In this document: piece after piece, positions 17,362 to 38,031 of the stretch
Layout of the letters: the number at the start of each line of letters is the position of its first letter
How positions within the stretch are numbered: the first letter of the stretch is position 1
Assembly (NCBI RefSeq): GCF_044647545.1
Contig: NZ_CP172818.1
Direction: 5' to 3' (one strand)
DNA: 64,000 nucleotides
DNA from: Escherichia coli
Lineage (GTDB): Bacteria > Pseudomonadota > Gammaproteobacteria > Enterobacterales > Enterobacteriaceae
Program-made: the position numbers and the translations under genes
The notes under the pieces: model-generated
What the model was told of the DNA's origin: nothing
The model's input: the letters and a program-made list of their open reading frames with translations, nothing else
Databases searched by the model: none

Positions 17362-17396
17362 GTTCACTGCTTCCTTGTTTTAAGTAAAGATAATAA

Positions 17397-19018
<1,622 letters not shown>

Positions 19019-21156: not shown

Positions 21157-21172
21157 GTTAGGCTGCTAACGG

Positions 21173-21205
21173 TTATCAAAATTTTATCAAAAAAAGTTAT
21201 CAAAA
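21173..21205 (+). repeat. Three direct TTATCAAAA copies (candidate integrase arm-type sites)
   Basis: TTATCAAAA at 21173, 21184 and 21197, just inside the left junction. A fourth copy in the same orientation lies at 35988-35996 near the right junction. Confidence 0.45.
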
Positions 21206-21518
21206 CCCCTCGGTAGTTTTGGGGTAGGCTGGCCGGTCAGGTGGTAGTTCTACTACTAGTCTCCCACATAGATATTCCTTAGCTTTTTATTATTGCTGGC
21301 GGACGCTCGTTAATATTTAAGGTCTTCATTGATTAAGACATCCCCAAAGTTAGTTATGTATTCACTGTTATTAGGACAATTATGAATTACCACTCCTTAC
21401 ACCCGCTCAAATATTGTTAAATTGCCGGTTTTGTATCAACTACTCACCCGGGACTCGCCAGGGGACAGCCAACAGGCATTGGGTGCAATCACCTTAGCGT
21501 TCAGGTACATGCGGAATG

Positions 21519-21543
21519 TAAAAAAGGCCGCGAGCGCGGCCCC
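21519..21543 (-). terminator. Rho-independent terminator of ymfE-ymfD
   Basis: The minus strand reads ggccgc-gctc-gcggcc followed by T6. It lies about 55 nt 3' of the ymfD stop. Confidence 0.75.
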
Positions 21544-21596
21544 TTCACATACATCTTTAGTACTGAGACTGTTTAACCTAGGGAATTATTATCGTA

Positions 21597-22262
21597 TTAT
21601 ATTGCATTACAACTCCCAACAGTGACATATGAACTTCCTGCTTTACTCCACGACTTTAATATTTCAAGGCCATGTGAAGAACATATTTCTTGCACTGCGA
21701 GTTCATCGAGTAATCCATAGTAAGAAACACTTTTTGAATTTTTGTAAATGTATCCGTAAAGATGTTTTCTTCCTGTTTCGTATTTTTTGAAGTATGAGCT
21801 TTTATATTGATTTACAATAAGAGTCTCACCTCCTGATTTTAGTAATCTCTTGATGCTAAGAACTATTTTGTCGATTGTATCCCGACAAGGAACGGCAGAG
21901 AGAACATTAGAGCAAAGGATGAAATCGTAACCCCCAATTATTTTGTCGACATCCTCGAAAGCAACTGTATTTGCATTTTTATAATATCGTGGGACATAGT
22001 CAATAATTTTAGTTTTAATTCCTCTAATAATTTGCTCTCTTTCAAGTTGCCTTTTCGAGTCTAGAAAAGTAACTTCATCAAATTTACTGATTAATTCATC
22101 AGAATATCTAAGTTTTCCGCAGCCAAAATCAAGGGCGTGGCCATTTTTCTCAATGCTTCTAATATACTCGCAAAGATATCTAGAGGGCATCGTATGAGGT
22201 TTTGCTGCATTCTCTGAGCGAATATTAACTCCGTGCATATTATAGTTCAAAGCAAGTACCAT
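21597..22262 (-). CDS. ymfD: Class I SAM-dependent methyltransferase YmfD (substrate unknown)
   Basis: 221 aa. Motif I ALDFGCGKLRY, acidic post-I FLDS, motif IV-like FILCSNVL. Very AT-rich. Start abuts the ymfE stop (TGAATG). Confidence 0.85.
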   Translation of the reverse strand: MVLALNYNMHGVNIRSENAAKPHTMPSRYLCEYIRSIEKNGHALDFGCGKLRYSDELISKFDEVTFLDSKRQLEREQIIRGIKTKIIDYVPRYYKNANTVAFEDVDKIIGGYDFILCSNVLSAVPCRDTIDKIVLSIKRLLKSGGETLIVNQYKSSYFKKYETGRKHLYGYIYKNSKSVSYYGLLDELAVQEICSSHGLEILKSWSKAGSSYVTVGSCNAI

Positions 22263-22976
22263 TCAATTAATGTTATTTTTAGTGAAAAATTCTTTTATTT
22301 TATCGTCCGGGATTTTTCCGACTTGACTTTCAGTTCTGGGCTTAACTGTCAAAGCAAAGATAATACCACTCACTGAGAATGATAAAATTACAAAAAAGAA
22401 TAAAGACAGCAAAGAACCTTCAACATGAAAAATATCCATTTGTTTGCAAAAAAAGATTATTAGGAAGGAAATTAATGCAATTATCGAAAATTCAAAAAAT
22501 ATCCAAAAATAGTATACTTTATTCCAGAAGAGTTCAATATAATGTTTGTCTTCAATTTTTCTTACTTCAGGGTAATATAGATTGCTCATTACATTGTGAG
22601 CTTCATCTTTATTTAATTTTCTGTTGACTCCAGCTCTCCGTGATAACGGTTTTATAATTAGATGCTTATCCCAAAGATATCGCACCCGAAGTAGTTTGGC
22701 TGCATTGTTATGTAGGTCTAACGCACCGCTAATTAAATATGCAAAAATCGCAAAAGCACAAGGTAATATACCAAAAGATAGTGCCCAATTAATAAAGCTC
22801 TCATGATCTTTAATAGGTGGGACATACTTGGTTGGTAATGTTATTAAAGGGATGTATTCGTAAATAACTAGAAGTATGCAATATATTAGCGTATTTAAGA
22901 AAGTTGCTTTATGAAGTTTAGGCAACATTTCATTATAATTTTTGGGGGGTTCGAACATATTATTCACCTGAGTCAC
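22263..22976 (-). CDS. ymfE: Polytopic inner-membrane protein YmfE (function unknown)
   Basis: 237-aa ORF with about 4 hydrophobic helices and alternative Met starts within the first 7 codons. Translationally coupled to ymfD. Confidence 0.8.
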   Translation of the reverse strand: MTQVNNMFEPPKNYNEMLPKLHKATFLNTLIYCILLVIYEYIPLITLPTKYVPPIKDHESFINWALSFGILPCAFAIFAYLISGALDLHNNAAKLLRVRYLWDKHLIIKPLSRRAGVNRKLNKDEAHNVMSNLYYPEVRKIEDKHYIELFWNKVYYFWIFFEFSIIALISFLIIFFCKQMDIFHVEGSLLSLFFFVILSFSVSGIIFALTVKPRTESQVGKIPDDKIKEFFTKNNIN

Positions 22977-23168
22977 GCTTTAGGATAGTGTAATGGTAAT
23001 ATTTAATTAAGTGTCATTATATACTTTTCAGTAGGTTAGTTACAATTTTTTGTATCTGTTCAGGCTGACCTAGCTTCGCTGACAGACAATATTGTGATCA
23101 GTAGCACGTATCGAGGAGGAGTAGCGCTACAAATTTGACGCTGGGTGAGAATCTGAAATTGATAGAAA

Positions 23169-23232
23169 TGAAATAATGAAATAATGAAATGATGAAATGA
23201 TGAAATGATGAAATGATGAAATGATGAAATGA
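23169..23232. repeat. 8-bp tandem repeat, 8 copies (2 x TGAAATAA + 6 x TGAAATGA)
   Basis: Counted directly in the sequence. Lies in the divergent ymfE/lit intergenic region. Confidence 0.95.
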
Positions 23233-23424
23233 TGACAGAGTGTCCAGTGGGCACGGATGGTGTCTTACGACATGCTTACCTTAATCGTTCCCAGTGTGCC
23301 TATAGCAGATATTCTAAACATGTCGATAATTCATTACGCATATAGTATCGAACATAGAAAAAACTGAAGATTCATCTTATTTTGTATATACTACCTAGCC
23401 CAACAATGTAGAGGTTAACGAAAA

Positions 23425-24318
23425 ATGCGCTCACCAATTTGTCATCTTTTCTCAGCAATTAATTCATCACCATTTAAGATTGCACCAGAGAAGGAGCAAG
23501 ATCTTAAAACGATAGTTGACGACAAAAAAATTATAATTTCAGTTGTGAGTGAACCTGGTTTTAATATCCGAGTCAGGAAGAATGAGAGTAATAATTCACA
23601 TGAAATAGTTCTAACAGTAGCTTCACTTGAATATATTTGGGCATTTTCCAATTTCTTTTGGGTTTTTACGCAAGAGTACTCCAAATCTCAGAAAAATAAT
23701 GATGAGCACTTTGATTTAACAGGAAAAAATAGGCTTAAAAAGTCTGATGAACTTCTTAAATGGGCAAGGAAAAACTTGCAAACAACAGGTTGCGAATCAT
23801 GGCCTAAAAAATGTCCCAAGCCAGAAGCATATTTACAAGGAAGCGAAGACTCACAAGTTGCTAGCGAGATATTTCTTTGTGCTATTGCTTGGATTCTTCA
23901 TCATGAAATAAGTCATGTTGTTTTACAGCATCCATTGGTCACTACAGCATTCTCCACTCAAGAGGAGCGTGAAGCAGATTCACATGCTACAAAATGGATA
24001 TTAGGCAACCTGTATGAATCCGCTCCTGAATTAAAGAAACGTGCACTTGGCATTGCTACGGCAGTGCTTTGTATACAAAGCTTAGAAGTTGAAAATTACT
24101 TCTGTTTACAAAATACACACCCAGCTGCATATGAGCGTATATATTCGAATATTTCATGCTACCCTGTCGGAAATGAAGAGTTGATTGAAGCTCTATGTAC
24201 AGTGATGCTTCAATATCTTTTCCATGGCAAAAATATCAATGTGAATCTAGATGGGGAGTCCTTTTCATCGATTTTAGGTGATCTTCTCTGTGATATTTCA
24301 CGTCTTACCAGTAACTGA
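23425..24318 (+). CDS. lit: Lit: phage-exclusion zinc metalloprotease (cleaves EF-Tu during T4 late gene expression)
   Basis: 297 aa with HExxH motif (HHEISH). Recognised as e14 Lit. Confidence 0.92.
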   Translation: MRSPICHLFSAINSSPFKIAPEKEQDLKTIVDDKKIIISVVSEPGFNIRVRKNESNNSHEIVLTVASLEYIWAFSNFFWVFTQEYSKSQKNNDEHFDLTGKNRLKKSDELLKWARKNLQTTGCESWPKKCPKPEAYLQGSEDSQVASEIFLCAIAWILHHEISHVVLQHPLVTTAFSTQEEREADSHATKWILGNLYESAPELKKRALGIATAVLCIQSLEVENYFCLQNTHPAAYERIYSNISCYPVGNEELIEALCTVMLQYLFHGKNINVNLDGESFSSILGDLLCDISRLTSN

Positions 24319-24408
24319 TATGGCTGTCCGCCGCTCGCTTAAAGTGGACTTTTTAGTTTTTATCATGTGCGGTGAGAAATTCAATGTGGCGTTGAGATGC
24401 TTAAAGGT

Positions 24409-25536
24409 TCACAACGCTACTTTGCTCCATCCTTTACCTCGATCATCATGATAACGATCGGTTTGTTGTTGTGTTTTATGACCAAGTAGTTTTTGTGTGT
24501 CTAACCCCTGTTCTTTATACAGACGTTCAGATAAAGACCTTTGCTCATGGAATGTCGCAGGTGAACCCTCTCCCCAGTCAATTCTTGCTAAATCTCTCGC
24601 TTTACTAAAATTCATCGTCAATGTATTGGCTTTAACCTGCGCTCCGCGCTCTGCTTGTGAAGTTGAACGAAAAAAATGCACTAAGTATGCACTGACTGCA
24701 TAGTCACGGCAGCGGGCTACTACATCGCGTAAACTCCAGTTAATCGCATTGAGGCGAAGAGAAAGAGGAATTGCGATTTTGCTCCCGGTCTTTTCCTGAA
24801 TGACATGAAGATGATCATCCCAAATATCGCTAAATTTCATACGCGAAATATCACCTAACCGCTGACCAGTAACCAGCGCTAACAGCATGGCATTTCCCAT
24901 GTAACGATGAGTAGCGTCTGCGATATCGAAGATTTTTTTCCATTCTTCAAGGCTCAGCCGTTGTCGGGTAATTTTTCTTCTTGGTTGTTTAGTGGCTAAT
25001 GCTGGGTTATAGCCAGGAGGTACTTCTCCGTAGTGCTGCGCCTCTTTGAAAACATCAATCAGGACGGAGCGAACTACTTGTGCCATTCTTGGCCGCCCAG
25101 CGGCGATATACTCATCAAGCAATTGTGCTATATCTCTGACATCAACGGCTGAGATCAACTTCATTCCTGCTCGTTCTCTGAGCAAGGATACTGGTTTAGC
25201 TTTTTGTTTATAGGTGTTGAGTCTTATATCACCACTTTTAAGCCTGTCATCCTGGATCGCTTGATAGCGATCTAACCAGGTTGACGTTGTGATAGCCTTT
25301 CCTTTGCTGGTTGCGATCCTGTCACTGATAGCCAGAATCTGCCGGGTTCTTTGTTCAGCCAGGCGAGTGTTGGCCTCAGTGGCAATAGCGATAGCTTCAG
25401 CTTCGTTTGTTCCCAAAGCATGGAATTTTCCTGTCACTGGATGCTTATACCGCCAATAGACTTTATTTACCTTCCTACTATAAAGCGGATATAAGTTAGG
25501 GACTGAAACATTATTCTTACGCGGTCTGGCTGCCAT
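24409..25536 (-). CDS. intE: Tyrosine integrase IntE
   Basis: 375 aa. Catalytic pattern R (GQRLGD), HxxR (HEQRSL) and H...Y (GHKTQQQTDRY). Confidence 0.94.
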   Translation of the reverse strand: MAARPRKNNVSVPNLYPLYSRKVNKVYWRYKHPVTGKFHALGTNEAEAIAIATEANTRLAEQRTRQILAISDRIATSKGKAITTSTWLDRYQAIQDDRLKSGDIRLNTYKQKAKPVSLLRERAGMKLISAVDVRDIAQLLDEYIAAGRPRMAQVVRSVLIDVFKEAQHYGEVPPGYNPALATKQPRRKITRQRLSLEEWKKIFDIADATHRYMGNAMLLALVTGQRLGDISRMKFSDIWDDHLHVIQEKTGSKIAIPLSLRLNAINWSLRDVVARCRDYAVSAYLVHFFRSTSQAERGAQVKANTLTMNFSKARDLARIDWGEGSPATFHEQRSLSERLYKEQGLDTQKLLGHKTQQQTDRYHDDRGKGWSKVAL

Positions 25537-25762
25537 TACTCAAAATCCGTTGCAAAAGTAATGAGTCATTTTTCTTGATTACAGGTGTTACCAACTCCCC
25601 AACTAACTCGGCGTCCTCACGCACTCGCCATAACCGGCCTTGTTTCATGGCCGGTGGACAAAATAAATTCTGCTTAGCATAACGACGCAATGTGGACACA
25701 CTTGGAGGATTACTTCTGTATTTTTCAGCAGCCCATTCTTCAAGAGTTAACATTTGAAGCAT
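25517..25762 (-). CDS. xisE: Excisionase XisE
   Basis: 81-aa small HTH-type protein. 20-nt overlap with the intE start. Confidence 0.85.
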   Translation of the reverse strand: MLQMLTLEEWAAEKYRSNPPSVSTLRRYAKQNLFCPPAMKQGRLWRVREDAELVGELVTPVIKKNDSLLLQRILSNGSQTA

Positions 25763-25829
25763 ATGCGATCACCTTATTACTACACTAACTGCTTAGTCTC
25801 ATCATATCGACCCTGCAAGGCCGATTAGT

Positions 25830-26120
25830 TTCTCCACAAAACAGAGAAGAACACCTGCGGCGGCAGCCGCCCGGATGGATTGGGTTATGAGCCCGTCGTC
25901 CGGTGATGCTCTTCTCTGTTTTGTAAAAAGGACGGTACCAGCCTGAAGCAAGGGTACAAACTGGTACCGCCAGGACTACACACAGCATAAAGTTGTGGTG
26001 CCGGGTGCCTCCCGGTGCCTGGCGAAGGTTGCACACCAGACGGGTGGGTATCCACAGAAGGTCGACTGTCAGCCTCAACCTTAACCCGCGTGCGCTGAGC
26101 CGCATTCACCACAACGCTAA
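25830..26120. other. GC-rich, stem-dense non-coding island (candidate structured RNA or leader)
   Basis: Perfect pairings at 25836-25850/25910-25924 (15 bp), 25933-25941/25961-25969 (9 bp), 25992-26000/26107-26115 (9 bp) and 26025-26031/26076-26082 (7 bp). Only overlapping low-quality ORFs are present. Confidence 0.3.
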
Positions 26121-26228
26121 GGATTCTCTTTGGTTGAAAATACTTAGCTGTTATGTGCCTGTCTTTTCACCACTTCAGGCTCGGTGGTATGCTGGAGTTC
26201 TCACACAGCCAGCAAGCAAGGAAACTTA

Positions 26229-26570
26229 ATGAACCAGTTTTATGTTCACGTTCGTCTATTTGAAGACACAGCCGAACAGACCAAAAAATTTGAAGAATTA
26301 ATGCTTAACTTTCTGTACCAGAAAACAGTTAAAGAGTCTGACGATAGCTGCTGCAGACTGATTCCAGAGGGATATATCCTCAAAAGTACAATGAACTGCC
26401 AACAAATCCTTGATCAAACATTTTCAATTGCTAACAGTGCCGGTGTTGACGCAAATATATTTGTCTGTAAATTTGAACAAAGCGCATGCTTACTTCCGTC
26501 TGCTTCCTTAGTTGGTAACGATTTCGTTCATTACGATCTTACGCCTAAGCCCATCAAGCTCGATTCTTAA
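26229..26570 (+). CDS. ymfI: Prophage protein YmfI (function unknown)
   Basis: Track ORF trimmed to ATG 26229 (MNQFYVHVRLFED), 113 aa. Confidence 0.7.
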   Translation: MNQFYVHVRLFEDTAEQTKKFEELMLNFLYQKTVKESDDSCCRLIPEGYILKSTMNCQQILDQTFSIANSAGVDANIFVCKFEQSACLLPSASLVGNDFVHYDLTPKPIKLDS

Positions 26571-26816
26571 AGCCTTAACCATTGTGTCGTGATAAACACG
26601 GCTCACCTTCTCTCCATTGCATGGCAGAGGGGTGAGTGTGTTAGCCATGAAATTCATGAACTCGGTTCGACCAGGGGCTTGCGCCCCGCAAGTCTTTAAT
26701 GCCTGTTTTGCTAACAAAATGCGGGCCTCAGTGCCTGCATTTGGCTCTATCTGCTGCAAACGTTTAGCGTCTTCCAGCAACAATGCGATCACATGCTTCA
26801 AATTCTGCTCATTCAT
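26508..26816 (-). CDS. ymfJ: Prophage protein YmfJ (function unknown)
   Basis: 102-aa ORF. Its 3' end overlaps ymfI convergently by 63 nt. Confidence 0.7.
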   Translation of the reverse strand: MNEQNLKHVIALLLEDAKRLQQIEPNAGTEARILLAKQALKTCGAQAPGRTEFMNFMANTLTPLPCNGEKVSRVYHDTMVKALRIELDGLRRKIVMNEIVTN

Positions 26817-26923
26817 CTATTCTCTCCACTGAAATCATCCGCTAACGAATCATCCCGGTCTTCGTACGTACCGGGCGGGCTACTTCGTGGGCGTCCTGCC
26901 TGTTTGTTGTTTCTCTTGGGTAC

Positions 26924-26952
26924 ATTATGTATCTCAAAGGTACATTGTCAAG
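26924..26952 (-). promoter_or_regulatory. Near-consensus sigma70 promoter reading toward ymfJ
   Basis: Minus strand: TTGACA (26952-26947), 17-nt spacer, CATAAT (26929-26924). Two ATGTACC repeats overlap it. Confidence 0.55.
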
Positions 26953-26953
26953 T

Positions 26954-26978
26954 ATAAAAAAACCTGCCGAAGCAGGTT
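26954..26978 (-). terminator. Rho-independent terminator of cohE
   Basis: The minus strand reads aacctgc-ttcg-gcaggtt followed by a T-run, directly 3' of the cohE stop. Confidence 0.75.
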
Positions 26979-26990
26979 CATAAACATTGA

Positions 26991-27665
26991 TTAGGCTTTG
27001 ATTTTGTATCTTCTTGGTTTTCCTGAGAAAATCACAGTACCAATTATAGAGCAATTACCGTTGATCTTAATGTAAGGCTCAGGCCAGTTTGGGTTTAACG
27101 CTTTGAGATAACGCTGTGTCCCATCTTCTATCAACCTTTTGAAGGTGGTTTCACCTGTATCGTGCATCAATGCAATAACGTCGTCACCGTGGCAGGCAGG
27201 TACTTCAGGATCGACAAAAATCATGTCTCCCGGGCGGTACTCATCAATCATTGAATCACCTATTACCCGCAAGATATAAGTCATTTCCCCACAGGGTACA
27301 GGGCAGGGATACGTTTCTGCTGTGCTCAAATCAACCTCAGAATATCCAACTTCTTTCCATGCTCCGGCCTGTACCCATGATATGACAGGGACTAATGTGA
27401 TTTGTTTATTAGTGATTGAAACATCAGGTTTTTTTGTGATGTTCGTTGTCTGGTGTTCTTGATCGAGCCATCCTACAGGCAGGTCGAAACATTTTTCGAT
27501 GTGTCGTGCCATGCTGTCACCGATATTTTTAGTAGCACCATCTCCCATAAACCTGCTGGTCTGGGTTGGCTCGCGATCAATCATAGTGGCAAAGGAAGAA
27601 TTCCCGCCAACACCATCTCTCAGTTTTCTGGCGTTAGACCGCCGGATGTCATGGATTGTTTTCAT
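26991..27665 (-). CDS. cohE: CI-like prophage repressor CohE (HTH + S24 self-cleaving peptidase)
   Basis: 224 aa. Cleavage-type Ala-Gly in WVQAGAW. Ser/Lys dyad motifs GDSM and FKRL. Confidence 0.9.
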   Translation of the reverse strand: MKTIHDIRRSNARKLRDGVGGNSSFATMIDREPTQTSRFMGDGATKNIGDSMARHIEKCFDLPVGWLDQEHQTTNITKKPDVSITNKQITLVPVISWVQAGAWKEVGYSEVDLSTAETYPCPVPCGEMTYILRVIGDSMIDEYRPGDMIFVDPEVPACHGDDVIALMHDTGETTFKRLIEDGTQRYLKALNPNWPEPYIKINGNCSIIGTVIFSGKPRRYKIKA

Positions 27666-27680
27666 AACGAAATTAAAACC

Positions 27681-27701
27681 CTTGTACCGTTAAGGTACAA
27701 G
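27681..27701. promoter_or_regulatory. Operator-like palindrome (TGTAC-N7-GTACA class)
   Basis: cttgtacc-gttaa-ggtacaag, with perfect 8-bp arms, in the cohE/croE divergent region. Confidence 0.6.
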
Positions 27702-27731
27702 TATCTTGAAGGTTCATTTCAATCATGTAAT

Positions 27732-27750
27732 ATGTACACCGGAGGTACAT
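27732..27750. promoter_or_regulatory. Operator-like palindrome (TGTAC-N7-GTACA class)
   Basis: atgtac-accggag-gtacat overlaps the croE Shine-Dalgarno GGAGG. Confidence 0.6.
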
Positions 27751-27755
27751 ATTGT

Positions 27756-27956
27756 ATGAAAGCGTATTGGGACTCTTTAACCAAAGAACAGCAGGGCGAG
27801 TTGGCCGGAAAAGTTGGCTCAACACCTGGCTACTTACGGCTGGTTTTCAATGGCTATAAAAAAGCCAGTTTTGTGCTGGCTAAAAAACTTGAGCAATACA
27901 CATCAGGTGCAATTACGAAATCTGACTTAAGACCGGATATCTATCCGAAAGATTAG
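27756..27956 (+). CDS. croE: Cro-like repressor CroE
   Basis: 66-aa tail of track ORF 27453-27956, starting at ATG 27756 after GGAGG. Divergent from cohE. Confidence 0.8.
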   Translation: MKAYWDSLTKEQQGELAGKVGSTPGYLRLVFNGYKKASFVLAKKLEQYTSGAITKSDLRPDIYPKD

Positions 27957-27987
27957 CAGAACACTTTCAATTTTTAACCACAGAACG

Positions 27988-28554
27988 ATGAGGCTAATCG
28001 TGGGTAAGCATCACTGGAAAATAGAAAAACAGCCTGAGTGGTACGTGAAAGCTGTCAGAAAAACTATCGCGGCGTTGCCGAGTGGTTACGCTGAAGCGGC
28101 TGACTGGCTCGATGTAACAGAAAACGCTTTATTCAACCGCCTTCGTGCAGATGGCGATCAGATTTTCCCGCTGGGATGGGCAATGGTTTTACAGCGTGCT
28201 GGTGGCACTCACTTCATTGCTGATGCTGTGGCGCAGTCTGCAAATGGCGTCTTTGTGTCTCTTCCTGACGTCGAGGATGTGGACAACGCCGATATTAACC
28301 AGCGTCTGCTGGAAGTCATTGAACAGATCGGCAGTTATTCAAAACAGATTCGTTCAGCAATCGAAGACGGTGTAGTGGAACCGCATGAGAAGACAGCAAT
28401 TAACGACGAGCTGTATCTCTCAATTTCGAAGCTGCAGGAGCATGCAGCACTTGTCTACAAAATTTTTTGCATTTCAGAAAGTAACGCCCGCGAGTGTGCA
28501 GCTCCGGGCGTCGTGGCGTCGATTGCTTCTGGTTGTGGAGAAACTAACGCATGA
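27988..28554 (+). CDS. ymfL: Prophage regulatory protein YmfL (CII-like)
   Basis: 188-aa ORF, first gene after croE. Start choice is uncertain. Confidence 0.75.
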
Positions 28555-28889
28555 ACAGTTTAACAACACACTACCGTCGCTCGCAACTGATTGCACTTCC
28601 TGTACCGGGTGGAAAAGCGAAGGTGGAGTATTGCTATGCAGTGAATGTACCAGGTGACAGGGAAATTGTAACCCACAGCTTTGCAGAGTGGGCTGTGGGT
28701 GATTTCAACCGGCAGAAGGAGACAGTCCTTTGCGACAAGTTAACCGCTGGTTCAAAGATCACTACGGAGTGCCCGTCAGAGTCATTCGTTGGGAGCCGGA
28801 AACACAACGGGTTATCTACCTCCGTGAAGGCTATGAACATGAATGCTTCAGTCCGGTCGAACAGTTTCGTCGTAAATTCAGGGAAATAG
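28551..28889 (+). CDS. ymfM: YmfM, prophage cell-division inhibitor candidate
   Basis: 112 aa with a 4-nt overlap with ymfL. Recognised as e14 YmfM. Confidence 0.75.
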
Positions 28890-28898
28890 AGGTCGGTC

Positions 28899-30266
28899 AT
28901 GAGCACTAAATTAACCGGCTATGTATGGGATGGTTGCGCTGCATCAGGCATGAAGTTATCCAGCGTGGCAATTATGGCCCGCCTGGCTGATTTCAGTAAT
29001 GACGAAGGTGTGTGCTGGCCATCAATTGAAACCATTGCCCGTCAGATTGGCGCGGGGATGAGTACCGTCAGAACGGCTATCGCACGGCTGGAAGCAGAAG
29101 GCTGGTTAACGCGTAAGGCGCGTCGCCAGGGTGATGGTTCATCACCCCACTGTGCGGTGGTGGATGAATATCACGAGCACGCCACCGATGCGCTTTATAC
29201 CACGATGCTTACCGGGATGGGGGCGCGACGTCAGCCACTGATGTGGGCCATCACCACCGCCGGGTACAACATTGAGGGGCCGTGCTACGACAAGCGGCGG
29301 GAAGTTATCGAGATGCTCAACGGTTCGGTACCCAACGATGAACTGTTCGGGATCATCTATACCGTTGACGAAGGCGATGACTGGACCGACCCGCAGGTGC
29401 TGGAAAAAGCCAACCCGAATATTGGCGTGTCGGTTTATCGCGAATTTTTGTTAAGTCAGCAGCAGCGTGCGAAAAATAACGCCCGTCTGGCAAACGTCTT
29501 TAAAACAAAACACCTCAATATCTGGGTGTCGGCGCGTTCGGCGTATTTCAACCTGGTGAGCTGGCAGAGCTGCGAGGATAAATCACTGACCCTTGAGCAG
29601 TTCGAGGGGCAGCCGTGCATTCTGGCCTTTGACCTGGCGCGTAAGCTGGATATGAACAGCATGGCGCGACTTTATACCCGCGAGATTGACGGTAAAACGC
29701 ATTACTACAGTGTGGCCCCGCGTTTCTGGGTACCGTATGACACGGTGTACAGCGTCGAGAAAAATGAAGATCGCCGGACAGCCGAACGCTTTCAGAAATG
29801 GGTGGAAATGGGCGTTCTGACTGTTACCGCTGGTGCGGAGGTGGATTATCGCTACATCCTCGAGGAGGCCAAAGCGGCGAACAAAATCAGCCCGGTCAGT
29901 GAGTCACCCATCGACCCCTTCGGGGCGACCGGGCTGTCGCATGACCTTGCTGATGAAGACCTGAACCCCATCACCATCATTCAGAACTACACCAACATGT
30001 CCGATCCGATGAAAGAGCTGGAAGCGGCGATTGAATCGGGGCGCTTTCATCATGACGGCAATCCCATCATGACCTGGTGTATCGGCAACGTGGTCGGCAA
30101 AACCATTCCGGGTAACGATGATGTGGTGAAGCCTGTCAAGGAGCAGGCGGAAAACAAAATCGATGGTGCGGTTGCACTGATTATGGCGATTGGCAGAGCA
30201 ATGCTGTACGAGAAAGAAGACACGCTGTCTGACCACATTGAGTCCTATGGGATCCGCTCGCTTTAA
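28899..30266 (+). pseudogene. oweE: Fusion of an HTH replication-type N-terminus to the C-terminal part of a terminase large subunit (oweE/ymfN)
   Basis: Residues 1 to about 88 form a winged-HTH-like segment ([16 protein letters not shown]). From [10 protein letters not shown] onward the protein is terminase-like and has no Walker A region. Confidence 0.8.
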
Positions 30267-30276
30267 CTGAGGTAAT

Positions 30277-30444
30277 TATGATCATGCTGATTCTCCGCCT
30301 CTGGTGGGCGGCGGTGCTTTTGCTGGCGTATGGTGCCGCTCATTTATCCCCCGGGGGTTTTGTTCCCGGGGCGTTGTGCCTGTTCTGGTCGTTGCTGGTG
30401 GCGCGAATCTGTTCGACACAGTCGTCTGTCGGCGGAGGTAAATA
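30277..30444 (+). CDS. ymfR: Small hydrophobic prophage protein (ymfR-like)
   Basis: My own translation gives 55 codons ([21 protein letters not shown]...), below the track cutoff. Lies between terminase and portal remnants. Confidence 0.4.
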
Positions 30445-30860
30445 GTGTTCTTTTCGGGATTATTTCAACGAAAAAGCGACGCACCGGTGACCACGCCAGC
30501 AGAGCTGGCGGATGCCATCGGGTTGTCCTACGACACCTATACCGGAAAGCAGATCAGCAGCCAGCGGGCCATGCGACTGACGGCGGTTTTTTCCTGTGTC
30601 AGGGTGCTGGCAGAGTCGGTCGGGATGTTGCCTGCAATCTGTATCACCTGAACGGCAGCCTGAAACAGAGAGCCACGGCGAGCGTCTGCATAGCTGATCT
30701 CCACGCATCCCAATGGCTATATGACGCCGCAGGAGTTCTGGGAGCTGGTGGTCACCTGTCTGTGCCTGCGGGAAACTTTTACGCCTACAAAGTGAAAGCA
30801 TTTGGCGAAGTGGCTGAAACTGCTGCCCGTCGATCCCGGCTGTGTGGTATATGCGCTGGG
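30445..30860 (+). pseudogene. beeE: Portal protein N-terminal remnant (beeE)
   Basis: GTG ORF MFFSGLFQRKSD...RAMRLTAVFSCVRVLAESVG is portal-like. Portal-like text continues in other frames (MTPQEFWELVV...GNFYAYKVKAFGEVAE), so it is frameshifted and then truncated. Confidence 0.7.
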
Positions 30861-31633
30861 AAGGTGTCAGCGATGGCCTGAAGGTGACCGCCGGGAGTGT
30901 TATTCAGCGCGATGACCTGGTGCAGTACACGACAACTGACGATGCAACCAGCTCCGGTGGTGTCCTGCGCGTGCCGATCACTTGCTCAACTACAGGCGCG
31001 GTCGGTAACGCTGACGACGGTACGGCATTAATCCTGGTCACGCCGGTGAATGGTCTGCCGTCTTCCGGTGTTGCAGATACCCTGACTGGCGGATTTGATA
31101 CTGAAGAGCTGGAAACGTGGCGCGCCCGCGTCATTGAGCGGTATTACTGGACGCCTCAGGGCGGGGCTGACGGGGACTATGTCGTCTGGGCTAAAGAAGT
31201 GTCAGGCATTACCCGTGCATGGACATACCGCCACTGGATGGGAACGGGGACTGTCGGTGTGATGATTGCCAGCAGTGACCTGATTAATCCCATTCCGGAA
31301 GAATCAACGGAAACGGCGGCAAGACAACACATTGAGCCACTGGCCCCGGTGGCAGGCTCTGATTTGTATGTATTCAGGCCGGTGGCGCATAAAGTGGATT
31401 TTCATATCCGCGTGACGCCGGACACACCGGAAATACGGGCTGCCATCACCGCGGAGTTGCGTTCGTTCCTGCTGCGTGATGGTTATCCGCAGGGAGAACT
31501 GAAGGTATCGCGTATCAGTGAGGCGATTTCCGGTGCGAACGGGGAATACAGCCATCAGTTGCTTGCACCGGCAGACAATATCTCCATTGCAAAAAATGAA
31601 CTGGCGGTTCTGGGGACGATTTCATGGACGTGA
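30842..31633 (+). pseudogene. jayE: Baseplate J-like protein, C-terminal fragment (jayE)
   Basis: 263-aa ORF lacking the N-terminal half of J-like baseplate proteins and abutting the portal remnant. Confidence 0.7.
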
Positions 31634-32208
31634 CAAACGATGATTACATCCGCCTGTTATCGGCACTGTTGCCGCCCGGTCCTGCATGGTCAGCCAGCGA
31701 TCCGGCGATTGCCGGTGCGGCACCTTCATTAACCCGCGTTCATCAGCGTGCGGATGCCCTGATGCGGGAGCTGGATCCGCGCACCACCACTGAACTGATA
31801 AACCGCTGGGAGCGTCTGTGCGGTCTGCCGGATGAATGTATTCCCGCAGGGACACAGACCCTTCGCCAGCGTCAGCAACGGCTGGATGCGAAGGTTAATC
31901 TGGCGGGCGGCATCAATGAGGATTTTTACCTTGCACAGCTTGCTGCCCTGGGCAGACCAGACGCCACTATCACGCGATACGATAAAAGCACGTTCACCTG
32001 CTCATCGGCCTGTACTGACGCAGTGAATGCGCCGGAATGGCGGTATTACTGGCAGGTCAACATGCCAGCCGCCACCAACACCACCTGGATGACATGTGGC
32101 GATCCCTGTGATTCCGCACTGCGTATCTGGGGCGACACCGTTGTCGAGTGCGTGCTTAACAAACTCTGCCCTTCGCATACCTACGTAATTTTTAAATATC
32201 CGGAGTAA
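31624..32208 (+). CDS. ymfQ: Tail/baseplate protein YmfQ (Mu gp48 / P2 I-like)
   Basis: 194 aa. Overlaps the jayE stop and immediately precedes the tail-fibre gene. Confidence 0.8.
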
Positions 32209-32211
32209 TCC

Positions 32212-32841
32212 ATGCATCGTATAGACACGAAAACCGCGCAGAAGGATAAGTTCGGCGCGGGTAAGAACGGTTTTACCCGTGGTAACCCCCAGACCGGCAC
32301 ACCTGCCACCGATCTGGATGATGACTACTTTGACATGTTGCAGGAAGAACTTTGTAGCGTGGTGGAGGCCTCCGGTGCCAGCCTGGAGAAAGGGCGGCAT
32401 GACCAGATGCTTACCGCACTTCGTGCGCTGCTGTTAAGCCGCAAGAATCCGTTTGGCGATATCAAATCGGATGGCACTGTGCAAACGGCTCTCGAAAACC
32501 TTAGTTTAGGAGAAGGAGCAAAACTCAATGCAGCAACGGCTACATTAGGACGCACCGGTTTCATAGCTATACCGGTTATGATTGGTGGTATTGAGCAATC
32601 AGTAATCATTCAGTGGGGGTGGAATGCCGCAAAAGCATCTGCCTCTGGGGGGGATGGAAATACAGTTGTATTCCCGGTTGCGTTTAATAATGCCTGTGTT
32701 GCCGTTGTTGCAAATTATGACAATGTCAGCGCACCTATCAATGCAGTGGCAACGGGGGGATATACAACCACTTCGTTTTTATTACGGTGCGCAGCTCAAA
32801 CGGGTAGTTATTACTATAACTGGATTGCTATTGGGTATTAA
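32212..32841 (+). CDS. stfP: Side tail fibre protein StfP (constant N-terminus joined to the currently expressed variable C-terminus)
   Basis: 209 aa. The crossover site lies inside the gene at codons for ALENLSLGEG. Confidence 0.85.
   Translation: MHRIDTKTAQKDKFGAGKNGFTRGNPQTGTPATDLDDDYFDMLQEELCSVVEASGASLEKGRHDQMLTALRALLLSRKNPFGDIKSDGTVQTALENLSLGEGAKLNAATATLGRTGFIAIPVMIGGIEQSVIIQWGWNAAKASASGGDGNTVVFPVAFNNACVAVVANYDNVSAPINAVATGGYTTTSFLLRCAAQTGSYYYNWIAIGY
32489..32514. other. Pin/Gin/Hin-type 26-bp crossover site (left)
   Basis: Its reverse complement TTCTCCTAAACT-AA-GGTTTTCGAGAG is inverted relative to the right site and shares the central AA. Confidence 0.8.
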
Positions 32842-32842
32842 G

Positions 32843-33319
32843 ATGAAAATATACTGTTGCTTAAATACCGTTGGTTTTTTTATGGATGGCTGTGGCGTCA
32901 TTCCGCCAGATTCTAAAGAAATAACGGCAGAACACTGGCAGTCATTATTAAAATCTCAAGCTGAAGGAGGCGTGATCGATTTTTCTGTTTTTCCTCCTTC
33001 TATTAAAGAGGTTATCCGTACTCATGATGATGAAGTCGCAGATGCGAACTTTCAAAAGCAGATGCTTATCTCTGATGCAACTGATTTTATCAATAGCAGA
33101 CAGTGGCAGGGTAAGGCTGCATTGGGAAGACTTAAAGAAGATGAGCTGAAACAATCTGATTTGTGGGCTGGATTATCTGGACGCACTGGCGCTGGTCGAT
33201 ACCGCCAGTGCGCCGGATCTGAATGGCCTACGCCTCCGGCAGTTCAGGCCAGTAAATATCCGGTACAGTGCTGGTATCCGTTGCCATCACCGCGTCAATG
33301 TAATCCAGCACGGCGTTAA
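32843..33319 (+). CDS. tfaP: Tail fibre assembly protein TfaP, apparently damaged near the C-terminus
   Basis: Starts at MKIYCCLNTVGFFMDGCGV. The conserved Tfa motif LDYLDALALVDTASAPDL is encoded in the +1 frame at 33168-33221, between in-frame conserved flanks. Confidence 0.6.
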   Translation: MKIYCCLNTVGFFMDGCGVIPPDSKEITAEHWQSLLKSQAEGGVIDFSVFPPSIKEVIRTHDDEVADANFQKQMLISDATDFINSRQWQGKAALGRLKEDELKQSDLWAGLSGRTGAGRYRQCAGSEWPTPPAVQASKYPVQCWYPLPSPRQCNPARR

Positions 33320-33830
33320 GTCGGGTGTTTTCTGTCTGCGTCAGCTTCCTCCCGGCCTGCAATTTCAGTTGAATCAGACTAATTGAAGCCATTGCAGTAT
33401 CAATCAGTGACTGGCGCTGTGCTTCTGCCGCTTCTATTGCGGCACCGTATTGTGCCTCGGTATCGGTTACCCATTTCTCACCATCCCATTTATCGTATGG
33501 TGTTAACGGAGCGATAGTGGTCATATTTTCAGGGTAATCCCCTGGCGCTGTGATTTCTTTTGGTTCTCCCGTTTCGGTGCTATAAACAATTTCACCGCGA
33601 TGGTCTGGCACATATTTCCACGAGTTCAAATCCGTTGAGCGGCAAATTGCATAACCCGTTTTATGTGTACCAGGTGCATCTAAACAAGAACATGCCGGGA
33701 TACCGACACCGACAGCAAGATATTCGGTTGATGTTGAGATATATTCCTGTGTCCCATTATCATAGTTATAAACGGTAATATCCCCTGCCTTTACCGCGAT
33801 CAGCGCATCATTTAATACAGCTCCACCCAT
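33228..33830 (-). CDS. tfaE: Tail fibre assembly protein TfaE
   Basis: 200 aa with conserved C-terminus LDYIDAVMATDTSTVPDIYWPELPEA. Its ATG overlaps the stfE stop (TAATG). Confidence 0.9.
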   Translation of the reverse strand: MGGAVLNDALIAVKAGDITVYNYDNGTQEYISTSTEYLAVGVGIPACSCLDAPGTHKTGYAICRSTDLNSWKYVPDHRGEIVYSTETGEPKEITAPGDYPENMTTIAPLTPYDKWDGEKWVTDTEAQYGAAIEAAEAQRQSLIDTAMASISLIQLKLQAGRKLTQTENTRLNAVLDYIDAVMATDTSTVPDIYWPELPEA

Positions 33831-34335
33831 TATGCAGCCCTCACGATATAATTAAATGAAATATTTCGTGGACGTGATTCGTTACCGAATTTATCTGAAC
33901 CATCAGTATTTCTCGCTGAATATGTTTGGAGGATTGTCCCTGATGATGGATTCGCATTATATTCATTTGTTCCTGCTGGATAGTATGACATTGCACTATT
34001 GTCATCTTTGAAAACAGCAGACATCAATCCATCACCACCACTTCCGTAAGCAGTTGTAAGAAATGACGGTGATCGAAAGAAAGACTATTTTGTGCCGAAA
34101 GTAAGGGAACGACCAGAATCTACCCCGCGCCCATCATCCCAGCCACGAATAAACTCACCACGTAAATCAGGCAATTTATTTGTCGGGTAAGCCTTCGCCA
34201 GTTTTGGATATTCAACGGCAGAAAAAGCCGCACCGTTGCATTTCAGCCAGCCAGTAGGCGGTGTGGCTGAAGGCCACGGAACAGGCACACCAACGGGTAA
34301 TGCCGAACCTTCTCCCAAACCAAGGTTTATGAAAA
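33830..34335 (-). pseudogene. stfE: Silent alternative tail-fibre C-terminal cassette StfE, with in-frame TAG
   Basis: Begins at the right crossover site (LGLGEGSALPVG). Track ORFs 34085-34390 and 33830-34027 are in one frame, interrupted only by TAG at 34085-34087. Confidence 0.8.
34310..34335. other. Pin/Gin/Hin-type 26-bp crossover site (right)
   Basis: TTCTCCCAAACC-AA-GGTTTATGAAAA, about 55 nt upstream of the pinE ATG. Confidence 0.85.
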
Positions 34336-34388
34336 TGCGGAATAAGCGGCAAATGGCATCATTCCTGCTTTTGTCAGGGAGAGCTACC

Positions 34389-34941
34389 ATGCTTATTGGC
34401 TATGTATGTGTGTCAACAAATGACCGAAACACAAATCTACAGCGTAATGCGCTGAACTGTGCAGGATGCGACTCATTTTTGAAGACAAGATAAGCGGTAC
34501 AAAGTCTGAAAGGCCGGGACTGAAAAAACTGCTCAGGACATTATCGGCAGGTGACACGCTGGTGGTCTGGAAACTGGACCGGCTGGGGCGTAGTATGCGG
34601 CATCTGGTCATTCTGGTTGAGGAGTTGCGCGAACGTGGCGTTAATTTTCGCAGCCTAACAGATGCTATTGATATCAGCACATTCGATGGGGCGTTTTTCT
34701 TTATGTGATGGGGGCCTTGGCTGAAATTGAGCGTGAACTGATTGTTGAACGAACAAAAGCTGGACTGGAAACTGCTCGTGCACAGGGACGAATTGGTGGA
34801 CGTCGTCCCAAACTTACACCAGAACAATGGGCACAAGCTGGACGATTAATTGCAGCAGGAACTCCTCGCCAGAAGGTGGCGATTATCTATGATGTTGGTG
34901 TGTCAACTTTGTATAAGAGGTTTCCTGCAGGGGATAAATAA
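34389..34941 (+). pseudogene. pinE: Serine DNA invertase PinE, inactivated
   Basis: Split over three frames (track ORFs ending 34493, 34708, 34941) by single-base losses near 34470 and 34702. The N-terminus reads YVCVSTNDRN where invertases have YVRVSTNDQN. Confidence 0.88.
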
Positions 34942-35047
34942 AGTTAAAGACACTTTGTGTACAAAAGAAAGTAAAACAACAGCAACTTGTTGCAATTTTA
35001 TCAATAAAAGTAGTATTGTCGTGAAAAATTGATTAAAGATTAATATT

Positions 35048-35881
35048 ATGCATGTTTTTGATAATAATGGAATTGAACTGAAAGCTGAGTGTTCGATAGG
35101 TGAAGAGGATGGTGTTTATGGTCTAATCCTTGAGTCGTGGGGGCCGGGTGACAGAAACAAAGATTACAATATCGCTCTTGATTATATCATTGAACGGTTG
35201 GTTGATTCTGGTGTATCCCAAGTCGTAGTATATCTGGCGTCATCATCAGTCAGAAAACATATGCATTCTTTGGATGAAAGAAAAATCCATCCTGGTGAAT
35301 ATTTTACTTTGATTGGTAATAGCCCCCGCGATATACGCTTGAAGATGTGTGGTTATCAGGCTTATTTTAGTCGTACGGGGAGAAAGGAAATTCCTTCCGG
35401 CAATAGAACGAAACGAATATTGATAAATGTTCCAGGTATTTATAGTGACAGTTTTTGGGCGTCTATAATACGTGGAGAACTATCAGAGCTTTCACAGCCT
35501 ACAGATGATGAATCGCTTCTGAATATGAGGGTTAGTAAATTAATTAAGAAAACGTTGAGTCAACCCGAGGGCTCCAGGAAACCAGTTGAGGTAGAAAGAC
35601 TACAAAAAGTTTATGTCCGAGACCCGATGGTAAAAGCTTGGATTTTACAGCAAAGTAAAGGTATATGTGAAAACTGTGGTAAAAATGCTCCGTTTTATTT
35701 AAATGATGGAAACCCATATTTGGAAGTACATCATGTAATTCCCCTGTCTTCAGGTGGTGCTGATACAACAGATAACTGTGTTGCCCTTTGTCCGAATTGC
35801 CATAGAGAATTGCACTATAGTAAAAATGCAAAAGAACTAATCGAGATGCTTTACGTTAATATAAACCGATTACAGAAATAA
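35048..35881 (+). CDS. mcrA: McrA, HNH endonuclease restricting modified-cytosine DNA
   Basis: 277 aa. C-terminal HNH region CENCGK...HHVIPLSSGGADTTDNCVALCPNCHRELH. Confidence 0.93.
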   Translation: MHVFDNNGIELKAECSIGEEDGVYGLILESWGPGDRNKDYNIALDYIIERLVDSGVSQVVVYLASSSVRKHMHSLDERKIHPGEYFTLIGNSPRDIRLKMCGYQAYFSRTGRKEIPSGNRTKRILINVPGIYSDSFWASIIRGELSELSQPTDDESLLNMRVSKLIKKTLSQPEGSRKPVEVERLQKVYVRDPMVKAWILQQSKGICENCGKNAPFYLNDGNPYLEVHHVIPLSSGGADTTDNCVALCPNCHRELHYSKNAKELIEMLYVNINRLQK

Positions 35882-36117
35882 AATTATTTATTAAAGTCAC
35901 ATTTAAGACGTAATACCCTACAGGGTAAAAATTTTCTCTGATCTTAACTTCTGCAAATGTTAACTGCTATTTTTATGCTAAAAATGGTTATCAAAACTCA
36001 AAAACACATGTTTATAATCAATGAGTTATAGAAATGCTAAGGGCTAATGAGTTATATGCAAATTAGTAAAATTATGTTGCTATGTCAGATAGTTACGATT
36101 TAGTCATCTAACTAATG

Positions 36118-36277
36118 TACGCCATATGGGCTGGACTGAAGCCGCAGACTTGATTGTTAAAGGTATGGAAGGCGCAATCAACGCCAAGACTGTAACCTAT
36201 GACTTCGAACGTCTGATGGAAGGCGCTAAACTGCTGAAATGTTCAGAGTTTGGTGACGCGATCATCAAGAATATGTA
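36118..36277 (+). pseudogene. icdC: Displaced icd 3' fragment (icdC)
   Basis: Identical to icd 20943-21103 and lacks the 5' 1.1 kb of the gene. Confidence 0.9.
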
Positions 36278-36329
36278 ATTACTACATGTGTTAAATATTG
36301 TAACGGGCGTATAACACGCCCGTTGTTTT
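36118..36329 (+). repeat. Right 212-bp direct repeat (attR side)
   Basis: Identical to 20943-21154. Includes the terminator hairpin at 36302-36324. Confidence 0.9.
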
Positions 36330-36380
36330 ATTTATGTGGGTATTATTAATAGCACATTGAGCATATTTATATGAAGCCCA

Positions 36381-36704
36381 TTACTTGAGCCCATATGGGC
36401 ATATTTTTATAATGCAACTATTATGCAAACATTTATTTGTTATTTTGCTTTCTCCTGGAGGACACTCTTGACTGCTTTTGAGTAAACTCCATAAATCCTT
36501 GTTGAATGGTGCGATGTTATAAATAGTAATAGGATATTCTTTATCCTTAAGGATAATACCAGATTTAACCGGTGTAAATATCCTGCCAGGAGGAAGAAAT
36601 ATAGTGGATTGATACCAGATGATCATTTTCATATCACCCCATATGGCTGAAAAAGATATGCCGCATGTAGGTTGAATTACCGTGTCAATTACTATCCACT
36701 TCAT
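36381..36704 (-). CDS. iraM: Anti-adaptor IraM (stabilises RpoS by blocking RssB)
   Basis: 107-aa ORF recognised as IraM/YcgW ([18 protein letters not shown]...). Confidence 0.88.
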
Positions 36705-37145
36705 TTGTTATGTCTTATCCCACGGTGCTTAATATAGTTCATTTGGATGTTCATTTCTTGATTTTGCATATGTGTATATTACTCCCAAAAAAATAAATTA
36801 ATTAAAAATTAATGTCATTATCTATATAAAACAAAATTTAAAGCAAGGAATCTCAATAGAGATTAAACAAAATGAGATTTAGTGAAAACATTAAATTATT
36901 CACTTCGTTTTAGATTTGTTTAGCTAAAATGTTATACATTCAAATGACTGAATATTCTGTAATTAAAACATAGCCTTTATGCTACTTTGAGCCAATTTGC
37001 TAAACATTATGGTTGGCCTTTTAATATAACGATAATGATGAATATAAGCATGACCTGAGAATAAGGTTTCAATTTTTTAGTTATATAAAAATGGTTAAAC
37101 CCGTTCCTGACTAAAATACATATAATCGGATGATGACTAAACCAA

Positions 37146-37220
37146 AACACATGTGCGTTAAGTATTGAAACGGGCGTATGGCACGCCCGTTGGTTTTATA
37201 AATATGTTAACCGTTATAAA
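37146..37220 (+). repeat. Degenerate third copy of the icd-terminator/att region
   Basis: acacatgtgcgttaagtattgaaacgggcgtatggcacgcccgttggtttt parallels acatgtgttaaatattgtaacgggcgtataacacgcccgttgtttt. The downstream taaccgttataaaa resembles taacggttatcaaaa of the e14 left arm. Confidence 0.6.
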
Positions 37221-37406
37221 ATAACGTATAGAAAGTCAAGTGATCACATTTCAAATATTAAGTTGATAGTATTGGCCTGGTGATTATTTATGGGTGGCAA
37301 TAAAAAGACAGTATTTATCATCCATAGGGATAGTCTCTGCACTTTTATTTCCATTATGCTAATGCCTTACTGAATTATGAAGCATTTCTTAAGCTTCCAA
37401 CTTTAG

Positions 37407-37811
37407 CTAGATTAATGGTTTATTGTTTTCTACATCTTCAATATATAAAAGCGTATTATCAATGGCGTAGTAACTGCGTTTGTTATGATTAACATCAGTA
37501 ACCCACCGGAAAACGCCCGCGTCTGCCAGTGTTGAACAGTATTCCCGAAATGTAGATTTTCCGCAAATATGAAGCAATGCGGCCTCTTTTATTTTAGCAG
37601 GGTTCTTGGTCGTACTAACTTTTAACAGGTTCCTGGTTCCTCTTAATAACAAAACCGTGTCATCGTGAGTAATAATTCTGATGTTATCCGTAGCTAGATA
37701 ATAAATGTAATGTGCAATACGGTGATGTTTTAATTCTGAATAAAACCAGGAGAAGTTTTGCTCTTTTCTCACTTGCTCAAACATCTTTTGAAAAACAACG
37801 ACCTGATCCAT
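37407..37811 (-). CDS. ycgX: DUF1398-family prophage-type protein YcgX
   Basis: 134-aa ORF recognised as YcgX. Confidence 0.82.
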   Translation of the reverse strand: MDQVVVFQKMFEQVRKEQNFSWFYSELKHHRIAHYIYYLATDNIRIITHDDTVLLLRGTRNLLKVSTTKNPAKIKEAALLHICGKSTFREYCSTLADAGVFRWVTDVNHNKRSYYAIDNTLLYIEDVENNKPLI

Positions 37812-38031
37812 CAGGATAATAACCTCTTGTTAGTTGTGAGACTGCGTAGTGTGCACGATCGGTTTTACCACTTCAATCTGGTCTGTCCTTTGGCTGTGAT
37901 ATGTACAAAGTGTGAAAGGGGGATTACCTGAATTCTCCCGGTGAGCATTTTGTAATGGACCAGCTCCGGTACAAACGCTGTTGTGGGTTCAGATTATAAC
38001 ATTCTGTCTAAGGGGCGGGATAAAGGTGAAA

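Follow-up and report, generated by a model that had tools for sequence, protein, structure and literature searches.

Phages of the e14/21 class must carry the 3' end of icd, the isocitrate dehydrogenase gene of Escherichia coli, together with its transcription terminator, keeping icd intact; the attachment of e14 and of phage 21 at the icd 3' end was reportedly described by Hill, Gray & Brody in 1989 and by Wang et al. in 1997. A related picture is the island model for tRNA and tmRNA genes, in which remnants, among them 'grounded' prophages, lie between duplicated 3' ends of the target (PMC6379469). The gene studied here, iraM, which encodes an anti-adaptor of RssB, is variably present in E. 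coli and prophage-associated: strain CFT073 has no iraM and carries a homologue, iraL, which has its own mapped promoter and lies on a potB-associated island; IraM-like genes adjoin stx2 in Stx2 and Stx2c phages; and the iraM of K-12 has been placed 'on the e14 prophage' (PMC4045071). Both the horizontal origin and the patchy distribution of iraM have thus been published already (PMC4045071). We analysed the icd locus in a stretch of 64,000 nucleotides (nt) of E. coli DNA (NCBI RefSeq assembly GCF_044647545.1, contig NZ_CP172818.1; the window), in which iraM lies between two copies of the icd terminator.

In the window an e14-type prophage occupies the icd locus, and beyond its right attachment (att) repeat come iraM, ymgK, ymgL, ycgX, bluR and bluF. 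A third copy of the icd terminator stands between ymgK and ymgL. The original prediction, a model's reading of the bare sequence, had taken this copy for a degenerate att site of an earlier icd-targeting element, with iraM trapped as cargo by serial integrations. We do find a discrete iraM unit bounded by terminators, best read as cargo from an earlier event at the 3' end of icd; copy 3 itself does not look like a fossil att site with e14-like arms. We regard the feature as the ordinary scar left by an old mobile element, a remnant left between duplicated target 3' ends, and that it represents no new mechanism or system.

Each of the described systems shares part of this arrangement. As with e14 and phage 21 at icd, the target gene is the same, and an incoming replacement icd 3' end plus terminator would leave the terminator duplicated; unlike at those sites, the duplicated unit here is 51 nt rather than 212 nt, and copy 3 is without an icd coding part, the position at which phage homology with icd starts, triple arm repeats or a nearby integrase. 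Islets at tRNA and tmRNA genes likewise have direct repeats of the target 3' end around low-GC cargo, an empty site with one copy and occasional precise loss. Here, by contrast, an mRNA terminator forms the repeat, no more than 0.8 kb with a single functional gene is left, and loss occurs at variable crossover points, looking homologous rather than integrase-driven. The IraM-like morons of lambdoid phages and IraL of CFT073 belong to the same protein family (55-71% identity) and are also single antisense genes, whereas chromosomal iraM lies outside any recognisable prophage and DNA homology stops at the coding sequence. With cis-mobilizable elements (CIMEs) and tandem accretion the locus shares the serial use of one attachment region, in the array icd-e14-repeat-iraM-repeat; it differs in that nothing indicates an integrase acting on copy 2 or copy 3, and in that deletions have different crossover points.

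The features on which the argument rests are the following (positions in the window).

19853-21103, plus strand: icd, the target gene (translation MESKVV...AIIKNM*; annotated as icd in matching genomes)
20943-21154, plus strand: attL repeat of the e14-type prophage, consisting of the icd 3' end and terminator copy 1 (212-nt direct repeat)
21155-36117, no strand assigned: body of the e14-type prophage (from sequence, alignment and the open reading frame (ORF) 35048-35881)
36118-36329, plus strand: attR repeat, consisting of a displaced icd' fragment (icdC-like, ORF 36126-36278) and terminator copy 2
36284-36331, plus strand: terminator copy 2, left member of the 51-nt direct repeat (ACATGTG...hairpin...GTTTTAT)
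36332-37148, no strand assigned: unique part of the iraM module (29.9% GC; missing as a block from iraM-less genomes)
36381-36704, minus strand: iraM, the RssB anti-adaptor gene (Pfam tag PF11183, PmrD family; phrog_4407; iraM in matching genomes)
36963-37007, minus strand: ymgK, a 14-codon annotated ORF upstream of iraM (mapped from the RefSeq annotation of genome L004)
37149-37199, plus strand: terminator copy 3, right member of the direct repeat (hairpin 37169-37191)

The two prophage att repeats, 20943-21154 and 36118-36329, are 100% identical; the last ~160 nt of icd fall within the left one, in which the copy 1 hairpin occupies about 21125-21151. The presence of a third copy, as originally predicted, was borne out. 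Copy 3 aligns to the terminator region of both repeats (21109-21150 and 36284-36331) with 86% identity over 44 nt and a local alignment score of 67, where 500 dinucleotide shuffles gave 22.4 +/- 2.6 and none reached 67 (z=17), and a repeat search places the three copies in one family (100, 98 and 86% identity). The alignment that had been suggested as a check is therefore beyond chance, and not for the hairpin alone: the 20 nt upstream of it (ACATGTG..TTAAGTATTG) also match, a result reached by 4 of 500 shuffles. Flanking arm sequences, treated below, stay at or near chance. Homology between copies 2 and 3 stops at GTTTTAT, beyond which the flanks are unrelated, and the homology of phage 21 and e14 with the chromosome ends no more than 2 nt from the same point. 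What copy 3 duplicates is the final 51 nt, the terminator region only, as against the 209-212 bp of the icd 3' end in an att copy.

Copy 3 carries signature changes: a GTG-CG-TT insertion, an A>G change, a loop changed from AA to GG and a G within the T-run. Among the loci from IMG/VR, all 19 copy 3s have GTGCGTTAAGT (GTG-CG-TTAAGT) and the GG loop, no icd-adjacent copy has them, and single-nucleotide differences in the flank are linked to iraM status. Since every copy 3 examined shares the same signature, we read the module as having been inserted once. The degeneracy seen in the original prediction seems to be no more than neutral drift between haplotype classes, because the 3-4 changes in 51 nt compare with a local divergence of 6.4% between iraM-positive and iraM-less ymgL regions.

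Comparison with 5426 complete E. coli genomes, using 36330-37420 (iraM plus copy 3) as the query, points to where the original chromosome resumes. At least 80% of the query is matched in 3846 of the 5426; about 1240 of 5088 matching genomes cover less than 80%, and the partial matches sampled (H32-H39) begin at query positions 819-840, that is window 37148-37169, inside copy 3. A junction-specific query identified at least 1037 of the 5426 genomes in which icd or icd' runs directly into the terminator, the "ataaatatgttaaccgttataaaat" flank, ymgL and ycgX, with no iraM. Where icd' precedes the single terminator it is the attR of a sitABCD-carrying prophage of the phage 21 type; in the others icd is intact. 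Prophage-free single-terminator sites, for example those of E2348/69 and ATCC 25922, were taken from the top matches of a query that passed the 80% threshold in almost all genomes and of which only the top matches are informative. An O78:H4 strain (L176) also has a single terminator, with IS200 immediately after the T-run. A prophage-free site with iraM (L004) reads icd-terminator-iraM-ymgK-copy 3-ymgL-ycgX. The right-hand features are as follows.

37200-37243, plus strand: native chromosomal flank B', 'ataaatatgttaaccgttataaaataacgtat...', which in iraM-less strains comes immediately after the single terminator
37244-37354, minus strand: ymgL, a small annotated ORF (mapped from RefSeq annotation)
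37407-37811, minus strand: ycgX, DUF1398 / phrog_413, 36.8% GC (from the ORF list and profile matches)

Because iraM-less genomes have icd, one terminator and then this same flank, ymgL and ycgX, and the flank is the same in all those examined, copy 3 and the sequence to its right are best taken as the native terminator and chromosome. Copy 3 is the orthologue of the sole icd terminator of iraM-less E. coli and, on our reading, the original chromosomal one.

The 51-nt direct repeat, formed by the icd-proximal terminator and copy 3, brackets an 814-bp module that holds iraM, its long regulatory region and ymgK; the unit that is present or absent is 36332-37148 plus one copy of the repeat, an 865-bp indel. 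iraM had been called the only gene between copies 2 and 3, and it does lie there, together with the 14-codon ymgK; ycgX stands beyond copy 3 as a prophage-family gene, as had been stated, and ymgL is there too. The module has 29.9% GC, compared with 47.1% for the window, 50.3% for icd and 31-37% for ymgL and ycgX. No recombinase gene occurs in the ORF list within 36332-37148, and we presume that it was lost. The locus thus shows target-site direct repeats (36284-36331 and 37149-37199), one-copy empty sites, atypical GC and relatives of the cargo in mobile elements, all of which belong to the description of an islet.

The window IraM matches phrog_4407 at 4.5e-51, and RefSeq calls its orthologues anti-adapter protein IraM; hmmscan of the protein against Pfam-A gave no family at E<=0.01, and PF11183 is among the precomputed Pfam tags of 28 of 32 IraM homologue clusters. 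Those 32 were the only IraM clusters in a search of 5.8 billion proteins, and every source name given is Escherichia. The relatives examined (62-71% identity) are single antisense genes in lambdoid (Stx-type) prophages, placed between Q or stx2 and nanS-p or the holin gene, and every relative whose genomic context was examined is prophage-borne.

The module can also be lost. A synthetic junction query on the K-12-type flank retrieved two singleton iraM-less genomes from which it has gone precisely. In one (L177) a left part of copy 2 type is joined to the flank of copy 3, which puts the crossover to the right of the loop; in the other (L178) the terminator next to icd' shows the complete signature of copy 3, which puts it at ACATGTG, the left edge. 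The differing crossover points argue for homologous recombination between the repeats rather than a site-specific reaction at a fixed core, and the repeats still permit rare, precise homologous loss of iraM.

By structure, a GC-rich stem-loop followed by a T-run, copy 3 is a predicted Rho-independent terminator. It scored as terminator-like at 37169-37191 (9 pairs, 6 of them GC; tail GGTTTTATAA; -16.8 kcal/mol), with an intact stem and an interrupted T-run in the window. In the K-12/Shigella haplotype, the commonest, the stem is mismatched (-10.1 kcal/mol, z -0.16), and copy 3 is decaying in most lineages. The terminator-like site in copy 2 (36300-36326; -18.7 kcal/mol, z -3.9) sits between the convergent icd and iraM.

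We propose, with moderate confidence, that the arrangement goes back to a single old insertion at the icd terminator by an element that brought its own terminator copy, most plausibly an icd-integrating prophage that was later deleted. The donor would have been a prophage of the e14/21 class with an iraM-like moron just distal to the terminator of its phage-borne icd'. It would have integrated at icd, and one internal deletion, reaching from a point upstream of iraM to some 20 nt beyond the stop codon of the displaced icd', would have left the present module. The icd-proximal copy would from then on terminate icd and, on the opposite strand, iraM, while copy 3, ~55 nt downstream of ymgL on the minus strand, could terminate ycgX-ymgL transcription before it reaches the iraM promoter. 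Integration followed by deletion would explain why the incoming element carried an icd terminator, why the homology of copy 2 ends where that of phage 21 and e14 ends, and why copy 3 has an arbitrary left edge.

Several points weigh against this proposal. We found no integrase and no arm-type sites within the module, and nothing in it that resembles an arm of e14, of phage 21 or of the sit phage. Searches of INPHARED and IMG/VR brought up no phage with iraM beside an icd' terminator (the IMG/VR matches to iraM at 93-97% identity seem to be predicted prophages that extend too far, into chromosomal iraM). DNA homology between iraM and the iraM-like phage genes is confined to the coding sequence, and termination at copy 3, on either strand, is a prediction from its fold. 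Precise loss being demonstrable, the absence of iraM from E2348/69-type and O78:H4-type lineages could be secondary. Polarity is not settled: no unoccupied icd-downstream outgroup locus was retrieved from E. albertii, E. fergusonii or the cryptic clades. In a contig scan with the hairpin pattern, the loci from E. albertii, Escherichia sp. MOD1, C. braakii and Citrobacter sp. were all occupied by phage-21-type or e14-type elements, and the icd locus of C. amalonaticus from the same scan ends 380 nt downstream. A route through BluR homologues led to C. freundii, where the bluRF module does not adjoin icd; one through YcgX homologues ended at another site in the chromosome of cryptic Escherichia and, in E. 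albertii, within a prophage, with no orthologous empty site.

Among the alternatives, one would make the two 51-nt copies the attL and attR of an element whose recombinase targeted the icd terminator hairpin rather than the coding position of icd at which e14 and phage 21 integrate, and which decayed to iraM. The ~51-nt duplication with sharp edges on both sides, resembling the duplicated tRNA-gene 3' ends at islands, and the empty site with exactly one copy would fit. We regard this as unlikely: no such integrase or element was found, whatever comes after an icd-adjacent terminator in phages and in IMG/VR is either native flank or of the phage 21, e14 or iraM type, and the different crossover positions of the two recent deletions point to homologous rather than fixed-site recombination.

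In a second alternative iraM and its two terminators are ancestral, the terminator having been duplicated locally, and the iraM-less E2348/69-type (B2) and O78:H4-type genomes are secondary deletions. Precise repeat-mediated loss has been observed twice, iraM-less and iraM-positive flanks form old and distinct haplotype classes, and polarity is not fixed by an outgroup. On the other side stand the 30% GC of the module and the lack of any chromosomal-type IraM cluster named for another species, the relatives examined being prophage morons; insertion between duplicated terminators would, besides, still require explanation. Flank divergence also bears on this. E2348/69-type flanks, without iraM, are the most divergent in the sample, at 2.8-3.4% from iraM-positive flanks, whereas the iraM-less O78:H4 flank is 1.65-2.3% from iraM-positive flanks and 2.5-2.7% from the E2348/69 type. 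Because the O78:H4 flank is thus nearer to iraM-positive flanks, one gain appears slightly more parsimonious than two losses, and we hold ancestral iraM to be quite unlikely.

An equally doubtful idea is that the icd terminator hairpin, in addition to the coding position used by e14 and phage 21, serves as a recombinase attachment site and that the low-GC tract iraM-copy 3-ymgL-ycgX records successive deposits of lambdoid antisense morons. Such a history would make the icd 3' end a hotspot of accretion, through which a phage gene came under PhoP/RpoS control. A side observation concerns these genes: the late region of lambdoid prophages has the order Q-[iraM-like]-nanS-p-lysis-[DUF1398]-Nu1 (seen in different prophages, L166 at 8001-8324 and L183 at 6001-6405), and the order and orientation of iraM...ycgX in the chromosome match it, despite copy 3 and the native flank lying between them. 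A relative of YcgX in E. albertii, 70% identical, is encoded antisense in lambdoid prophages, with Rz on one side and Nu1 on the other.

Copy 3 as the fossil att site of an earlier e14-like element, in the manner of an attP-like or tandem-prophage junction, with a right-arm remnant to its left and a left-arm remnant to its right, fares worse still, and we think it very improbable. It was suggested by two resemblances. The first, between 37085-37135 and the e14 right arm, is what chance gives in AT-rich DNA (30 of 500 shuffles, and 73-147 of 500 under three softer scorings). The second, between 'taaccgttataaaat' after copy 3 and 'taacggttatcaaaat' in the e14 left arm, where it recalls the first arm repeat, is marginal (21-61 of 1000 anchored shuffles). 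In its favour, the e14 left-arm variants, the icd flank of C. amalonaticus and the E. coli flank have G(C/T)TAACnnTTATnAAAAT in common, and the next gene, ycgX, is of a prophage family. In the e14 left arm (21155-21210), however, TTATCAAAA is repeated three times, presumably as arm-type sites, and in phage 21 the equivalent position holds TTCCCCAAAA three times, as against a single imperfect TTATAAAA beyond copy 3. The sequence to the left of copy 3 does not resemble icd coding sequence (when alignments were anchored and run over 30-170 nt, 420-877 of 1000 shuffles did as well), and the left edge of icd homology is missing: the CGCCATATGGGCTGG region, where phage and chromosome switch and where the Int core presumably lies, is absent, and CCATATGGGCT occurs only at 20947, at 36122 and inside iraM. 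No integrase, excisionase or other phage gene adjoins copy 3, whose neighbours are iraM, ymgK, ymgL, ycgX and bluR.

In iraM-less strains, moreover, what had been read as a left-arm remnant is the usual chromosomal sequence beyond the icd terminator. It has more in common with the flank downstream of icd in C. amalonaticus (...AAAATAAC and ...TTATnAAAATAAC are shared) than with e14. In C. amalonaticus a convergent gene follows, whose predicted C-terminus is outer-membrane-like, of the PagC/Ail/Lom type as judged by eye. The e14 left-arm variants resemble both this flank and that of copy 3, and the weak similarity to e14 is better read as phage homology or common ancestry reaching past the terminator than as a fossil arm. 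As an observation on its own, ungapped comparison of the e14 arm variants ('ttttatgtaagtttgctaacggttatcaaaa') with the chromosome of C. amalonaticus downstream of icd gives ~78% identity, which suggests that phage-borne icd homology may once have extended beyond the terminator. Searches with the right and left arms of e14 and the arms of phage 21 and the sit phage against the iraM module and the ymgL-ycgX flank gave only chance-level matches, and these candidates were rejected.

Convergence of unrelated Rho-independent terminators, both being GC-rich hairpins with T-runs in AT-rich DNA, is refuted by identity that spans the loop and 20 unpaired nt upstream (z=17) and by positional orthology with the terminator of iraM-less strains.

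The proposed insertion and deletion at icd, with iraM as their residue, has some consequences. iraM lies outside the e14 attR repeat in the window and at the same place in genomes without e14 (L004, L175), which corrects its placement on e14 in the literature. The duplicated icd terminators offer a structural explanation for the patchiness of iraM, which about a fifth of E. coli strains do not have. The result also suggests that a PhoP-controlled stress regulator of the host was at first a prophage moron, deposited at a hotspot of phage integration, and it should be useful to studies of RpoS regulation across E. coli lineages and to engineering of the icd/e14 region. Mg2+ starvation, the signal sensed by PhoP/PhoQ, induces iraM. 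In the closest genome (L175), phoP and phoQ (7882-10013) lie ~6 kb upstream of icd (16199-17449).

The non-coding tract between iraM and ymgL is unusually polymorphic within E. coli. The iraM-ymgL haplotype of the window is rare, with 83 of 5091 matching records at least 99% identical over 36330-37420 and 4869 at 90-95%; a K-12 genome is 93.5% identical, and the window does not come from a K-12 strain. IS1 recurs in the AT-rich interval from iraM to copy 3, as insertions or IS1-bounded deletions in several unrelated genomes (L013, L173, L174, L175; H25). L174 has IS1 at the site and an IS1-associated deletion that removed iraM through ariR. The occurrence of iraM at this locus without an att-like remnant had been named as evidence that would speak against the original prediction; the one examined iraM-positive genome without copy 3, L173, keeps iraM and has lost copy 3 in an IS1-associated deletion, so that no refutation came from it.

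Four further observations concern the surroundings. In C. freundii (L169-L172) the bluF-bluR-ycgZ-ymgA/B module is conserved, without ycgX, beside a fimbrial operon and gdhA rather than icd; since it sits elsewhere there, the adjacency of bluRF to icd in E. coli is lineage-specific. The 11-mer CCATATGGGCT occurs three times in the window (20947-20957 and 36122-36132 on the plus strand, 36388-36398 on the minus strand) against 0.03 expected. Two of these lie where the e14 att repeats in icd have their left edge and phage-icd homology starts, and the third, inverted, lies in the 3' end of iraM inside the palindrome GCCCATATGGGC; there it encodes the CPYGL motif common to the whole family, for which the phage homologues use other codons. 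We considered it as a pseudo-core and set it aside because of this coding role and its inverted orientation; the sharing between the icd att edge and iraM is probably a coincidence. No Rfam family was matched in 20500-38000. Within the e14-type prophage, whose body has an mcrA-like HNH gene (ORF 35048-35881) at its right end, the left part holds a tandem array of 8-nt units (ATGAAATA / ATGAAATG), about 10 of them, at 23160-23247.

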